The notes: generated by a model from the sequence alone, not told the origin. Shown: positions 14,911 to 28,362, numbered from the stretch's first letter. The stretch is DNA of 64,000 nucleotides from Candidatus Moraniibacteriota bacterium (GCA_049290235.1 JBATNG010000017.1:628-64627), one strand, 5' to 3'. Made by a program: numbers and translations.

Positions 14911-14985
14911 TCCGGCGTAGCTCAGCGGTAGAGCAGGTGACTGTTAATCACTTGGTCACAGGTTCGAATCCTGTCGCCGGAGCCA
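14911..14985 (+). tRNA. tRNA-Asn (anticodon GUU), CCA encoded
   Basis: Manual cloverleaf: acceptor tccggcg/cgccgga, D-arm gctc-agcggta-gagc, anticodon stem ggtga/tcact with loop ctGTTaa, T-arm acagg-ttcgaat-cctgt, discriminator g, then cca. Confidence 0.85.
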
Positions 14986-15168
14986 ACATCAGTATTTCTC
15001 AAGCGACCGGTTCCCATCCGTGGGGAAAGGCCGGAGGGAAGGGAAGAATCGTCACGGAAGGTGGCGATTTTTCTTTCCTCTCACACCGGTTTCATTGCCG
15101 GTCGGCAATCGGATTCGAACCAGGGAAATCTGATTGTATGATATGAAATTTTTATCAACGGTATCAAT

Positions 15169-16326
15169 ATGAATAATCTCAACCCGTATTCAGCTCTATT
15201 CGATGGCGGCAAGAAACGGATCAGATACAACGGAAATAGCGTATTCCAGCCCATTGAGGACGTCAAAGAATCCGATTTCAGCGAAGGGATCACGACAGGA
15301 AGGATCGCGAAGATTTTTCAGGATCCGGAATATTTTTATCACCTTCACAAGGTAGACAATGGGATATTCTTCGGAGCGGTGGAATACTTCCGATCGATCG
15401 ATGCCGAGTGGTGCAATCTTCCCCTCACGACACTCATGATTTCATCTCCGGGAGAAGTGTACGCCGGAAAAACGCTGGATTACACGACCGATACGCTCCC
15501 GGTTGATATATCCTGGTTTGACAATAAGCGGAACGTCTTTCTTTCGGAAAGTTCACAATTCTATCTCGAGCTGAGGCTCCTGACGCAGAATATCGGTAAG
15601 GTCTTTTCCATATATAATTCGTTCAGAAAAGAAAAGGCGGACTTTTGTCATCTTTCGGAGTTCCAGCACATCGAATTCGAGGGGAAGGTTTCTTTTGACC
15701 AGAATATTGATATCTTTCTCGGTTTGATGCGTCACATCACGAAGTATCTTATAGACAATGAGAGAGAAAGCCTGGAGTACTTCATCGGGGAGGAAAAGCT
15801 GAAGGAGCTTGCCGATGCCTTTTCAGAGGGAAATATCGTTACGATTACCTTCAAGGAGGCGCTTGAAGCTCTCCATAAGGAGACCGGGGATGATATGTAC
15901 AAGGAATTCAGCCTGAAAAACTTCGGTGCATGGGAAGAAATAAGACTTACGGAGATATTCGGCAAGCACGTCATTGTGACGAAATTCCCGCTTTTGCAGA
16001 TTCCTTTCTATCACAACGAACTTGAGGAGAATGAGGACGGGGTTCCGCTCGCCGAGAATGCCGATTTCATCCTCTGTGGTTATCGGGAAACCGTCGGAAG
16101 CGGAACGAGAATTTCAAATTCGGAAGCCTTAAAGGAGAAAGCGAAGACTTTCAATCTTCCTATGTCGGATTACGATCCGTATATTCAGACCCGTCTGAGG
16201 GAAGGGTATCAAAAGACTTCCGGTTTCGGTCTCGGATGGCAGCGGTATGTGCAATGGGTATTACAGTTGCCATATATATGGGAAGCGACACATATACCGC
16301 GAGGACATCATCTCCCTAAGCCGTAA
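15169..16326 (+). CDS. AsnA-type asparagine synthetase / class II aaRS-like catalytic core without an anticodon-binding domain
   Basis: Motif-2-like FRKEKADFCHLSEFQHIEFEG, motif-3-like GSGTRI...GFGLGWQRYVQWVLQLPYIWE. The C-terminus resembles AsnA ([22 protein letters not shown]). No N-terminal OB-fold. Confidence 0.6.
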   Translation: MNNLNPYSALFDGGKKRIRYNGNSVFQPIEDVKESDFSEGITTGRIAKIFQDPEYFYHLHKVDNGIFFGAVEYFRSIDAEWCNLPLTTLMISSPGEVYAGKTLDYTTDTLPVDISWFDNKRNVFLSESSQFYLELRLLTQNIGKVFSIYNSFRKEKADFCHLSEFQHIEFEGKVSFDQNIDIFLGLMRHITKYLIDNERESLEYFIGEEKLKELADAFSEGNIVTITFKEALEALHKETGDDMYKEFSLKNFGAWEEIRLTEIFGKHVIVTKFPLLQIPFYHNELEENEDGVPLAENADFILCGYRETVGSGTRISNSEALKEKAKTFNLPMSDYDPYIQTRLREGYQKTSGFGLGWQRYVQWVLQLPYIWEATHIPRGHHLPKP

Positions 16327-16339
16327 AATCAATAAATAT

Positions 16340-17182
16340 ATGGATCAGAAGACCTTCGATAATTTTTTTCAGCCATACGCAAAAAATGTCGACAAAGCCG
16401 ACGATGTGAGCGCCTTTTGGCGACTCTCTGATGCATTGATCATGGAGATTATCAAGGAAAGTATCGGAAAGCATTGTTCCGAGCAATCAGCTGTATGTGA
16501 TGCGGGGGGTGGGACTGGACGGTGGGTGGTGAAGATGAGCATAGAGATTCCCGGAAAATTCATGGTCTACGATCGCTCGGTCGATATGCTCGCAAAAGCG
16601 AAAGAAAATATTGAAAAAGCCGGCCTTTCCGATAAGGTAACGCTCGTTCAGGGAGACTTGACCGATATGAAGAGTATTGAAAGCGAGTCGATCGATCATA
16701 TCGTGAGTATTTACAGCCCGATAAGCTTCATTTCCGAGAACGGAAAGGCAGCTTCGGAAATGTATCGTGTTCTCAAAAAAGGAGGGAGAATTCTTCTTAT
16801 GGGACACAGTTACTATAATGCGCTTGCGTCGAAAGTGAACAATTATCGGGCCGATTCCGAAGAGCTCGCGCGGCTCTCGGAAGAATATCGGGTGAAGTGG
16901 GCACCATATGTCCCTGAGCTGGTGACTTTTTCGAAGGAGAGTATGGAGTCTCTCTTGAAAACGGCTGGCTTCCGAATTGAGAAAACATACGGCGTTCCGG
17001 TGTTCGTTCAGCCCGGTCCGGAAGATTTTGATCCGGAGAACGAGAAGGTGAGCGCGGTGTCAACCTATCTGGAGAATCCGGACGTATTCAAGCAGATATT
17101 CGATTTGGAAATGGAACACAACAGCAGGGATACAGTTGCCAATCGGGGGATGAACATATTCACTCTAGCCACAAAGATATGA
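16340..17182 (+). CDS. class I SAM-dependent methyltransferase
   Basis: Motif I VCDAGGGTGRW, motif post-I VYDRSVDML, LVQGDLTDM. ATG at 16340 lies just after the upstream stop at 16324-16326. Confidence 0.7.
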   Translation: MDQKTFDNFFQPYAKNVDKADDVSAFWRLSDALIMEIIKESIGKHCSEQSAVCDAGGGTGRWVVKMSIEIPGKFMVYDRSVDMLAKAKENIEKAGLSDKVTLVQGDLTDMKSIESESIDHIVSIYSPISFISENGKAASEMYRVLKKGGRILLMGHSYYNALASKVNNYRADSEELARLSEEYRVKWAPYVPELVTFSKESMESLLKTAGFRIEKTYGVPVFVQPGPEDFDPENEKVSAVSTYLENPDVFKQIFDLEMEHNSRDTVANRGMNIFTLATKI

Positions 17183-18204
17183 AAGAGCTTATAAACCCGA
17201 AGCAACTTCAGAAGGGAGACCTCATTTCTATCGTTTCTCCATCCGCCGGACTAGGAGAACTTTTCCCTCATCGGGTAAAAGATGGTATTCGGGCTTTGGA
17301 AAGGATGAGTTTTTGTGTCAAGGTGGAGAAAAACGCGCTTGGTCGGAAGGGGTGGGTGTCCGGAACGGTTGAAGAGCGAATCGAGGATTTGCATTCAGCT
17401 TTTTCCAATCCCGAAGTGAAATGTGTCATGGCATCTATCGGCGGCGATCATAGCAACCAGCTTCTCAAGCATATCGATTACGATCTCATACGGAACAATC
17501 CGAAGATATTTATCGGTTACTCCGATATTTCCGTGCTTCATTACGCACTGCAGTCCAAGGCTGGACTCCGAACATTTTATGGACCGTGTCTCATATCGGA
17601 ATTCGGGGAATATCCGGATGTTCTTGATTATACGAAAGACTCGTTCATGAAAACTCTCGTCGATGGGTCGTTTGGAGAGATTCGCGCATCGGAAGAATGG
17701 ACTGATGATTTTTTGGACTGGTTCAATCAAGAGAACCACACAAAGAAAAGGACGCTGTATCCATCGGGCGGTTATGAATGGTGGAAAGAAGGCCGCGCGG
17801 AGGGGCGGATTCTCGGGGGATGCGTTCCATCGATCAATCACACATTGGGGACCGAGTATTGGATTGACCCTCGAGGAGCTTTGTTTTTCATTGATATCCC
17901 GGAAGGGGGGCCGGGAGAACCGATGGACATGGCCGCACTGGATTCGTTTTTTGCTGATTTGGATAACGCGAAGACGTTTGAGAATATCTCCGGTCTTATT
18001 ATCGGCAGACCGTACAGGTTTTCGGAAGAATTGCACTCCGAACTGAAGGGACTCGTCTTGAAATATGCCGGTTCATATGGTTATCCTATCCTCTATAATG
18101 CAAATATAGGGCACTGCGCGCCGAGTATCACGCTTCCGTTCGGAGCGCTTGCAGAGGCCGACTCTTCGCGGAATCTTTTTCGGATTGCTGAATCGTGGGT
18201 TTGA
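17179..18204 (+). CDS. LD-carboxypeptidase, peptidase family S66 (LdcA / microcin C7 immunity MccF family)
   Basis: Resembles S66 (LdcA/MccF) family; no specific catalytic motif could be pinned down by eye. Confidence 0.65.
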   Translation: MKELINPKQLQKGDLISIVSPSAGLGELFPHRVKDGIRALERMSFCVKVEKNALGRKGWVSGTVEERIEDLHSAFSNPEVKCVMASIGGDHSNQLLKHIDYDLIRNNPKIFIGYSDISVLHYALQSKAGLRTFYGPCLISEFGEYPDVLDYTKDSFMKTLVDGSFGEIRASEEWTDDFLDWFNQENHTKKRTLYPSGGYEWWKEGRAEGRILGGCVPSINHTLGTEYWIDPRGALFFIDIPEGGPGEPMDMAALDSFFADLDNAKTFENISGLIIGRPYRFSEELHSELKGLVLKYAGSYGYPILYNANIGHCAPSITLPFGALAEADSSRNLFRIAESWV

Positions 18205-27473: not shown

Positions 27474-27496
27474 AACCTGGTACGCTAGATAAACAT

Positions 27497-28078
27497 ATGC
27501 AAGAGCAATACTACAAGAGCTTAGAAACTTACGAGGACTGGGGAGCTCACAAGTCAGCAGTCTTGAGTATGATTGAGGAACAGGACAGGGAAGTTGTAGA
27601 GCAGGCGATAGGAATAGTAGAAAAGTATCACAATACTCCAAGAACTCTGTATACAGGAAACTACAATCGTCATCCCGTGAGAGTAGCAAGAATTCTGTTA
27701 GAAGAGTTTGATGTGAAGGATGCAAGAGCCGTTTTAATTGCTCTTTGCCACGACTTGGGGGAGTGGTCGGAATATGATGTGAAGAATCTCGAAAATGAAT
27801 TTGGAGCTGATGTAAAATCGGGTGTTGAAACTCTAACCTGGAATGCAGGCGATACGTGGGATTCATTCTTTCAAAGAATTGTTGCCACGAAGAACGATGA
27901 CCTCATAAAGGTCAAAATGGCGGATAAACTGGACAACAATAGGTCAGCTGTGTTTTCTAGTGAGGCTGAGAAAAAGAAGGCCAGAGAGAAGACGGAAAAA
28001 ATCCTACGACCCTTTGTGGAGAAGAACTACCCAGATTACTGGAAGAAACTTGAAGAATCCTTGCGGGCATTAGCCTAG
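27497..28078 (+). CDS. HD-domain hydrolase, RelA/SpoT hydrolase-domain-like (small alarmone hydrolase type)
   Basis: HPVRVARIL...ALCHDLGE and KMADKLDN (compare SpoT KLADRLHN). Confidence 0.55.
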   Translation: MQEQYYKSLETYEDWGAHKSAVLSMIEEQDREVVEQAIGIVEKYHNTPRTLYTGNYNRHPVRVARILLEEFDVKDARAVLIALCHDLGEWSEYDVKNLENEFGADVKSGVETLTWNAGDTWDSFFQRIVATKNDDLIKVKMADKLDNNRSAVFSSEAEKKKAREKTEKILRPFVEKNYPDYWKKLEESLRALA

Positions 28079-28112
28079 TGCAGATCTGGAATAGAGAATA
28101 GTCGTTCCTAGT

Positions 28113-28162
28113 ATCACCGTTCTAACGTCTCTCTCAGGCGGGCAGGCTTTCATGATGCGAAG
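28113..28162 (+). promoter_or_regulatory. conserved 50-nt non-coding leader element, copy b (upstream of msrAB)
   Basis: See 25406-25455. Confidence 0.4.
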
Positions 28163-28362
28163 CAACTATCACTGAAGCTTAGTGGGAGACTCTCCACGTG
28201 TTGTCCGGCGAGTTTTCTATTGAGTGAAGACTATCCCTTTTCCTTTAACAGTACCCTTGATTGGAGTTCGGACCTGGTATACTACCCAAACAGGAGAGCG
28301 GAACGGAGGGAGAGGAAGGGCATATCGGCCGTAGGATAAACAGCACATGAAAACGACAGGCT

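Follow-up and report, generated by a model that had tools for sequence, protein, structure and literature searches.

Tandem islands at tRNA and tmRNA genes are established, examples being those at ssrA in Dehalococcoides (PMC3146451) and at the asparagine tDNA hot spots of Klebsiella (PMC4891358). Integrase-less cis-mobilisable elements (CIMEs) and the accretion-mobilisation model are established as well (reviewed in PMC5704250). Here we describe a stack of this general kind in a 64,000-nt stretch of DNA (the window; GCA_049290235.1, JBATNG010000017.1:628-64627) from a Candidatus Moraniibacteriota metagenome-assembled genome (MAG), in which three blocks of cargo follow one another behind a tRNA-Asn(GTT) gene and two of the junctions carry a hairpin unit that imitates a tRNA end around a conserved insert. 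As an island it is of a common type, although its host is unusual; what was not expected is the hairpin unit at its junctions. We think it probable that the 3' end of this tRNA-Asn gene is an integration hot spot, where three foreign blocks lie between short direct repeats that contain the T loop. Far more tentatively, we propose that the units, which are widely distributed, are a perhaps undescribed module with the insert GAAGUUUAUGCCCUUUAGGGUAAAU, which might form an integron-like capture array served by a recombinase in trans or might encode a new tRNA-mimic small RNA.

As in those tRNA and tmRNA islands, insertion is at the 3' end of an RNA gene, direct repeats of that 3' end stand between blocks, composition is foreign and content varies from strain to strain (PMC3146451, PMC4891358). 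Islands of that kind normally have an integrase beside the RNA gene, and here there is none (PMC3146451, PMC4891358). A further difference is that two of the repeats here hold a conserved insert, which had no match in Rfam or in the text searches run.

The closest rpoD loci to that of the host are from Patescibacteria, and the island is flanked by dnaG and rpoD on the left and by msrAB, csoR and a P-type ATPase gene on the right. Its tRNA-Asn, which an earlier note on this DNA had placed at 14911-14985 as tRNA-Asn(GUU) and which ARAGORN and Rfam return at the same coordinates on the + strand, is the sole tRNA found in the window; it has been kept intact, and foreign DNA extends from 14986 onward (Table 1). 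The same note had reported about 13 kb of AT-richer DNA, and composition agrees: GC content is 0.425-0.480 in the blocks against 0.543 and 0.549 in the flanks, windowed GC content is 0.52-0.60 on both sides and 0.40-0.51 within 15-28 kb, and the tetranucleotide distance to the flank profile (2-kb windows) is 0.39-0.45 over 16-28 kb and 0.20-0.33 outside, the exception within the island being the 18-20 kb window at 0.31. Both of these measures, which the note had proposed computing, are shifted over the island and back at flank level at about 28.3 kb. The right end that it set there holds for composition. Compared with L004, a related locus whose RpoD is 87% identical to that of the window, the variable region possibly reaches 31.7 kb: similarity resumes at 31729, and msrAB with three small genes (28363-31064) is also variable, yet host-like in composition. 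An independent Logan assembly is 100% identical across window positions 18363-32453, so the inner junctions are not assembly artefacts; a second MAG contig is 99.985% identical across 24393-37673.

Repeat analysis confirmed the positions of the three partial tRNA copies and of the 24-bp repeat pair reported earlier. Copy A, which closes block 1, differs from the final 23 nt of the tRNA by one nucleotide (22 of 23 match), and the hairpin behind it is the centre of a palindrome with 33-nt arms. Copies B (20773-20840) and C (24789-24856) share 68 nt at 82% identity; a tRNA-Asn fragment in front of C spans the anticodon arm, variable loop, T-stem 5' strand and T loop, and the tRNA 3' end is present once more at 24804-24826. 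The 24-nt repeats S2 and S3 match at 22 of 24 positions. In length and identity these repeats are far above the chance expectation for 64 kb, and a fuzzy search found no further copies of them in the window. Terminator T2 and an inverted T-loop-like motif stand after B and again after C, and this motif recurs once more at 28260, which accounts for the bracketing of block 3 by the 24-nt pair.

The inverted motif, GGAKTTCGAAS, was observed 40-120 nt downstream of each tRNA-end copy: at 15103-15126, 20856-20870, 24875-24889 and 28263-28277 in the window, and in relatives at 4908-4921 of L086 and at 14598-14610 and 16413-16423 of L229. A convergent tRNA may have left it behind, or it may be an attachment site of a second type.

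Block 1 covers 5.7 kb between the direct repeats at 14961-14983 and 20690-20712. Its AsnRS-like protein falls far under the cut-off in its NCBIfam matches and has homologues at 83-93% identity in other Patescibacteria; a homologue search with this protein reached L229/L230, from another Patescibacterium. Window positions 14945-20712 and L229 positions 8798-14546 are 76% identical at the nucleotide level and hold the same five genes, and in L229 the repeat GGTTCGAATCCTGCCGCCGGAGC lies at both island ends, inside the intron-bearing tRNA-Asn and after the radical SAM gene. Between the two genomes the island proteins are 75-84% identical, compared with 50% for DnaG and 80% for the conserved part of RpoD. 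A third contig, L228, has the same five genes at 78% identity with no tRNA repeat near. That the five genes are shared with the same borders in L229 and also occur away from a tRNA in L228 argues that block 1 is a portable module, which in two genomes sits at the T-loop-to-3'-end segment of tRNA-Asn. Neither of these two tRNA-Asn-borne copies contains an integrase.

In a Minisyncoccota MAG a 90% identical AsnRS-like gene is accompanied only by the methyltransferase and peptidase genes, and protein P0192 joins the AsnRS-like part and the methyltransferase in a single chain. The five-gene module is kept across Patescibacteria, and it looks like a pathway acting on aminoacyl-adenylate or tRNA-related substrates, or like a resistance set against synthetase inhibitors.

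The site itself varies among relatives. The earlier note had called for a relative lacking the insertions, and L103 is one: nothing but a plain terminator separates its intact, intron-less tRNA-Asn from the next gene. L103 carries AbiEi, AbiEii and a 72% identical primase-helicase upstream of dnaG, and the block 2 genes have therefore changed place. In L004, a gene for a 497-aa large serine recombinase (12350-13843) overlaps the tRNA-Asn 3' end, and next to it an element (14043-16971) holds a tyrosine integrase, a helix-turn-helix protein and a 378-aa unknown protein between 28-nt direct repeats; tRNA-end repeats were sought in L004 and none was found. Past block 1, L229 continues with a Fic-bearing segment, then a short remnant of a tRNA end, then flank F for the second time, 7.4 kb downstream of the copy that follows its tRNA; in the window flank F stands directly behind the tRNA and occurs only once. 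The block 1 right repeat of L229 leads directly into T2 and the inverted motif, without a unit; at the corresponding spot in the window, copy A is followed by a terminator and unit B. T2 and the inverted motif also close the unit arrays of L086 and L087. In L086, which has the same RpoD-tRNA-Asn arrangement as the window (with an endonuclease III gene between rpoD and the downstream, intron-bearing tRNA-Asn), two units are separated by a terminator alone and there is no cargo. Tandem accretion at a tRNA hot spot is well supported, because block 1 recurs at tRNA-Asn and because both a bare and a recombinase-bearing site exist in relatives. The earlier description of a variable, compositionally foreign, integrase-less insertion stack at tRNA-Asn is upheld by this recurrence and by the variation of the site.

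The same comparisons bear on a reading that needs no mobile DNA, in which a tandem tRNA-Asn array has decayed and the DNA between its copies consists of AT-richer ordinary host genes. Such a history could account for the retention of tRNA positions 24-62 in copy C and for a conserved host-type gene that units flank in L087. It fits poorly with three distinct compositions that are all unlike the flanks, with block 1 having the same borders in a genome where DnaG is only 50% identical and lying away from tRNAs elsewhere, with the block 2 genes at another locus in L103, with a defence and toxin-antitoxin content typical of islands, and with the bare site in L103. We consider it very improbable.

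The accretion of foreign blocks raises the matter of what recombinase could have acted. No recombinase domain was detected by Pfam among the open reading frames (ORFs) of the island or ten other large ORFs of the window, and a tblastn search of the window with four recombinases from related loci gave no match, in line with the earlier statement that no tyrosine or serine recombinase gene lies in the window. Like an integrase-type tRNA island, this one lies at a tRNA 3' end, is flanked by direct repeats of the tRNA 3' part, is atypical in composition and varies in presence among relatives; it lacks an integrase of its own. With sites on both sides and neither recombination nor transfer genes, it has the make-up of a cis-mobilisable element. 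Like CIMEs, it consists of att-flanked DNA without recombination genes, stacked at one site and thought to be movable only with help (PMC5704250). Unlike CIMEs, its sites are of three kinds, its mobility is presumed, and no helper element with matching sites was found, the L004 recombinases at the same tRNA using different repeats.

Blocks 2 and 3 carry cargo of different kinds. AbiEi stands next to AbiEii in block 2, which constitutes an AbiE type IV toxin-antitoxin system, and the block also holds a 59-aa ORF. The PrimPol-helicase that the earlier note had placed in this segment is confirmed by Pfam, though its gene carries an in-frame TAG (24276-24278) that breaks the frame into ORFs of 586 and 122 aa; homologues (~720 aa, 68-74% identical) have Glu at this position. 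The nonsense codon would fit decay of the helicase gene, and is consistent with the earlier suggestion that the elements may be decayed. This primase-helicase family is very common in Patescibacteria chromosomes; a literature text search for 'TOTE conflict system' returned no match. Block 3 is a group of small metabolic and nucleotide enzymes, with genes for a glyoxalase, a RibD_C protein, a nucleotidyltransferase, an HD hydrolase and two proteins of unknown function. Within the block, a direct repeat of 50 nt (D4, 88% identical) lies at 25406-25455, upstream of the RibD_C gene, and at 28113-28162, just past the HD gene, and this pair may mark a further nested insertion.

Cargo of this sort recalls the tycheposons of marine cyanobacteria, which reportedly target tRNAs, bring a replacement tRNA end and stack tandemly. 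They are also said to carry a primase/helicase module often and to leave cargo-only remnants. The present locus differs in its host phylum and in having no integrase, and we liken the two by description alone.

The unexpected part of the locus is the pair of hairpin units at copies B and C. The 5' strand of unit B reads ttcggtg-gcagg, its conserved loop is agtcgaagtttatgccctttagagtaaat and its 3' strand is cctgc-cgccaga-gc; in both units the stem copies the T and acceptor stems of the tRNA and the loop insert GAAGTTTATGCCCTTTAGGGTAAAT is conserved. Queried with the conserved part of B and C, TTATGCCCTTTAGNGTAAATCC, public contigs yielded matches in 19 metagenome stretches and one IMG/VR contig. 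A looser motif scan brought the IMG/VR total to three, the two additional viral contigs having a variant hairpin; its other viral matches were mostly chance ones, these two being those that passed a stem check. In most matches the motif lies in a hairpin, as its enlarged loop. On the 3' side the stem repeats the T-stem and acceptor 3' strand of the tRNA gene immediately upstream, on the 5' side it is complementary to that sequence, and a terminator hairpin comes next. Units follow genes for tRNA-Asn, Lys, Asp, Ser(GCT), Pro(CGG) and Tyr on contigs that span 26-64% GC, and tandem units are common, with two in L095 (54 nt apart), two in L102 and two in L086.

An all-against-all BLASTP comparison of the surrounding ORFs found no protein shared near units across tRNA types, and the ORFs nearest to units comprise, by Pfam, one integrase, one IS1595 transposase and otherwise unrelated proteins. 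In Rfam the units had no match at the gathering threshold, and permissive E values (up to 1-10) gave chance-level matches only; in cultured phage and plasmid records the motif occurred at chance level only, and its sequence, as DNA or RNA, had no match in the searched literature text.

This distribution bears on the scar model of the earlier note, in which A, B and C are attR and attL scars of blocks 1-3, the attP held aagtttatgccctttagRgtaaatcctg and the integrases were later lost. For block 1, copy A does act like an attR, B and C bracket block 2 with the stretch that they share, and relatives do have integrases at tRNA-Asn. The attP motif is not specific to any element: it is a conserved hairpin loop that lies behind at least six kinds of tRNA in very different, unrelated organisms with no common neighbour gene. 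The model further sits badly with the two units of L086 with a terminator alone between them, with the closely spaced units of L095, and with the passage of the block 1 right repeat of L229 directly into T2 without a unit. Nor does it fit L102, where the units come after a tRNA-Lys 3' end whose T loop is normal and which is itself preceded by a tyrosine integrase; the units are therefore on the host side of the prophage attR. Serial att scars thus describe copy A, as the right end of block 1, and do not describe B and C as simple scars of blocks 2 and 3; as an account of the whole, the model is improbable. Because units occur with many tRNA types, lie free of cargo in L086 and lie on the host side in L102, B and C are better seen as pre-existing or independently acquired flank modules.

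Related tRNA-Lys contigs carry terminator-plus-unit modules in differing combinations. In L102 one terminator, T(a), follows the tRNA copy and another, T(b), follows unit 1; the same foreign end, aaaacctgtggRcaRtcaca, adjoins the first of these terminators in L089 and the second in L093. This suggests, short of proof, that the tRNA end and the unit end are both able to receive an element.

In L087, a direct repeat of ~165 nt composed of terminator, unit and terminator (1913-2068 and 3796-3963) surrounds a single 494-aa gene. We considered this ORF as a new recombinase and rejected it: it had no Pfam, PHROG or PDB match, and its homologues form a conserved Patescibacteria family that lies beside neither tRNAs nor units. 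Many homologues of the gene are on very short contigs.

Integrons offer another comparison for arrays of this type. CALINs are clusters of integron cassettes and attC sites without an integrase, and the present array is like them in its co-oriented cargo, its hairpin sites of conserved architecture and variable sequence, the lack of an integrase nearby and the very short 'empty' modules. It is unlike them in that the loop is conserved and not the outer stem, in being anchored on a tRNA gene and in having multi-gene blocks with their own terminators. The attC boxes RYYYAAC / GTTRRRY (R''-L''...L'-R') were absent from the units by eye, and no integrase was found by Pfam in the ORFs examined.

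The units might act as an extra attachment site, as a cassette junction, as a small tRNA-mimic RNA, or as a very small mobile palindrome that invades T-loop hairpins. The RNA role belongs to an explanation in which the units are small structured RNA genes (a tRNA minihelix mimic with a modified T loop), transcribed together with the tRNA or after it. That they lie at block boundaries would then be incidental, integrases using any tRNA-like 3' end. Several features point that way. Changes in the 5' strand keep its pairing with the acceptor strand through G-U pairs, which favours RNA: ttcggtg pairs with cgccgga in unit 2 of L086 and, save for one mismatch, with cgccaga in unit B, the tRNA's own sequence being tccggcg. 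Changes in the inner hairpin compensate for one another (GCCC-TTTA-GGGT, GCCCC-GCA-GGGGT and CCCC-GAA-GGGG, with a longer variant in L086 and L087), a T-loop-like pentamer is kept as TTCGA, GTCGA or TGAGA, and each unit has its own terminator, the L095 units lying within the tRNA transcript before its T tract. Over 13 units, 79.9% of the cells of the proposed structure are paired, compared with 31-51% when the partners are slid. Covariation of the outer stem is no proof of function, because it is expected anyway of tRNA-derived copies; at most loci a terminator separates the tRNA from the unit, no promoter is evident, and Rfam has no such family. In L084, L085, L091, L096, L098 and L100 the 21-mer also occurs within REP-like palindromes, ggcggattacgc...gtaaatccgccctacg, that have no tRNA end, which favours a DNA-level element. 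We hold the RNA explanation to be rather unlikely, though less so than the scar model.

REP and BIME sequences are palindromic elements moved by RAYT transposases, and the units resemble them as short, nested intergenic palindromes with a conserved core, in addition to sharing the 21-mer with REP-like palindromes. They differ in being tied to tRNA 3' flanks and in copying the stems of the adjacent tRNA, and BLASTP and Pfam analysis of neighbouring ORFs showed no RAYT-like gene near units. Two further ideas were rejected. Likeness to hammerhead or box C motifs failed on inspection, and a leader peptide MPFRVN (with AUG and a Shine-Dalgarno-like GGAG) was discarded as one variant has no ATG and variant hairpins shift the frame.

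Returning to the hot-spot reading, the simplest account of the repeats, composition, gene content, recurrence of block 1, the bare site and recombinase-bearing elements in relatives, and the distribution of units would have the following order of events. The ancestral flank of tRNA-Asn would have consisted of a terminator, one or more units, T2 and the inverted T-loop-like motif, as it still does in L086. Block 1 would then have entered the T-loop-to-3'-end segment, restoring the tRNA gene and pushing copy A and the flank downstream. Blocks 2 and 3 would have been inserted further out, at reiterated flank modules made of units with terminators and of S motifs. The recombinases may have acted from trans or may since have been lost, so that the blocks would be fixed remnants or mobile only through recombinases in trans, and decay of the helicase gene would have begun. 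Our best guess is that the units, by repeating the tRNA 3' end, provide extra attachment points at which cargo could stack without harm to the tRNA.

Several observations weigh against this history. Block 2 starts after T2 and S1, and not at the 3' end of unit B. The argument from L089 and L093 presumes that both strains share the array of L102. Block 1 is integrase-less in both of its carriers and may have been immobile for long, and the greater identity of its proteins relative to DnaG may reflect slower evolution, not transfer. The unit-flanked gene of L087 belongs to a conserved Patescibacteria family, so unit-flanked DNA is not always foreign. Mobility is something that we infer, since neither a recombinase nor an excision product or circular form was observed. 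Finally, copies A and B carry C65 (B also G49), as does the tRNA of L229, and the resident tRNA and copy C carry A49/T65. These T-stem variants mean that the history is not simple, and foreign DNA probably brought in some of the array.

Some side observations concern the tRNA gene and its surroundings. A group I intron interrupts the tRNA-Asn of several relatives between nucleotides 34 and 35 of the anticodon (L003 8720-8925, L004 11787-12338, L086 4318-4606, L087 4007-4251 and L229 8169-8797); four of these introns score 50.7-76.6 bits in Rfam, and that of L229 is deduced from its split exons. An HNH-like ORF lies inside the intron of L004, L086 and L229, and the intron is absent from the tRNA-Asn of the window, L023 and L103. 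A giant ORF of 2371 aa (window 209-7324) lies upstream of the dnaG-rpoD region, and a giant gene of at least 2618 aa directly follows the tRNA-Asn of L103. The contig L088 (26% GC) has almost no long ORFs in code 11 near its tRNA cluster, which suggests that it uses an alternative genetic code.

Table 1. Features of the tRNA-Asn island and GC content of its parts, in window coordinates.
Feature	Position	Strand	Support or value
tRNA-Asn(GTT), intact, intron-less	14911-14985	+	ARAGORN; Rfam tRNA 73.3 bits
Block 1 left repeat, last 23 nt of tRNA	14961-14983	+	repeat family D1
Flank F, directly after tRNA	14985-15020	+	14978-15020 97.7% identical to L229 16283-16325
S0, inverted T-arm-like motif GGATTCGAACC	15103-15126	.	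inverted repeat I3, 79% complementary to tRNA T arm
AsnRS/AsnA-like class II synthetase core, without anticodon-binding domain	15169-16326	+	Pfam tRNA-synt_2
SAM-dependent methyltransferase	16247-17182	+	Pfam
S66 LD-carboxypeptidase (peptidase family including MccF)	17179-18204	+	Pfam Peptidase_S66, S66C
LysRS-like class II synthetase paralogue	18265-19515	-	Pfam; NCBIfam lysine-tRNA ligase 228 bits (cut-off 468)
RlmN/Cfr-like radical SAM enzyme	19660-20562	+	Pfam Radical_SAM; NCBIfam RlmN 162 bits, below cut-off
Copy A, block 1 right repeat: tRNA 3' end, normal T loop, C65 variant	20690-20712	+	
Terminator-like hairpin between copy A and unit B	20713-20755	+	inverted repeat I1
Unit B, tRNA-end mimic hairpin	20756-20810	+	folds at -20.8 kcal/mol, z = -2.6
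Terminator T2	20811-20847	+	homologous to terminator after unit C and those of L086, L087, L229
S1, inverted T-loop-like motif GAGGATTTGAACTGG	20856-20870	.	aligns with S2; counterparts in L086, L087, L229
AbiEi antitoxin	21004-21588	+	PADLOC 2.6e-59
AbiEii nucleotidyltransferase toxin	21600-22310	+	PADLOC 3.1e-77; Pfam AbiEii
AEP(TOTE) primase-SF2 helicase fusion	22518-24671	+	Pfam AEP-TOTE and ResIII
tRNA-Asn fragment before copy C	24740-24778	+	repeat D7, 90% identical to tRNA positions 24-62
Unit C, second tRNA-end mimic hairpin with conserved loop	24779-24826	+	
Terminator T2', homologous to T2	24827-24864	+	repeat D2
S2, left 24-nt repeat of block 3	24872-24895	+	repeat D12
Block 3 cargo	24896-28259	all +	Pfam, PHROGs
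S3, right 24-nt repeat of block 3	28260-28283	+	repeat D12; host-level composition resumes here
GC content, left flank			0.543
GC content, block 1			0.480
GC content, block 2			0.425
GC content, block 3			0.451
GC content, right flank			0.549

Gene gain through islands stacked at tRNA genes is well known, and the island itself adds little to that picture. The locus does document defence and aminoacyl-tRNA-synthetase-related cargo moving among Patescibacteria, where mobile elements are poorly known. That genomes of very different kinds hold a near-identical sequence of 22-30 nt, placed inside copies of various tRNA ends, implies that it has spread horizontally or is strongly constrained, and the unit that holds it sits where cargo accumulates. 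If the units are RNAs, they would represent a new tRNA mimic. If they are attachment sites, they would explain how cargo can stack without an integrase and without harm to the tRNA, and would provide a sequence tag for finding such arrays.

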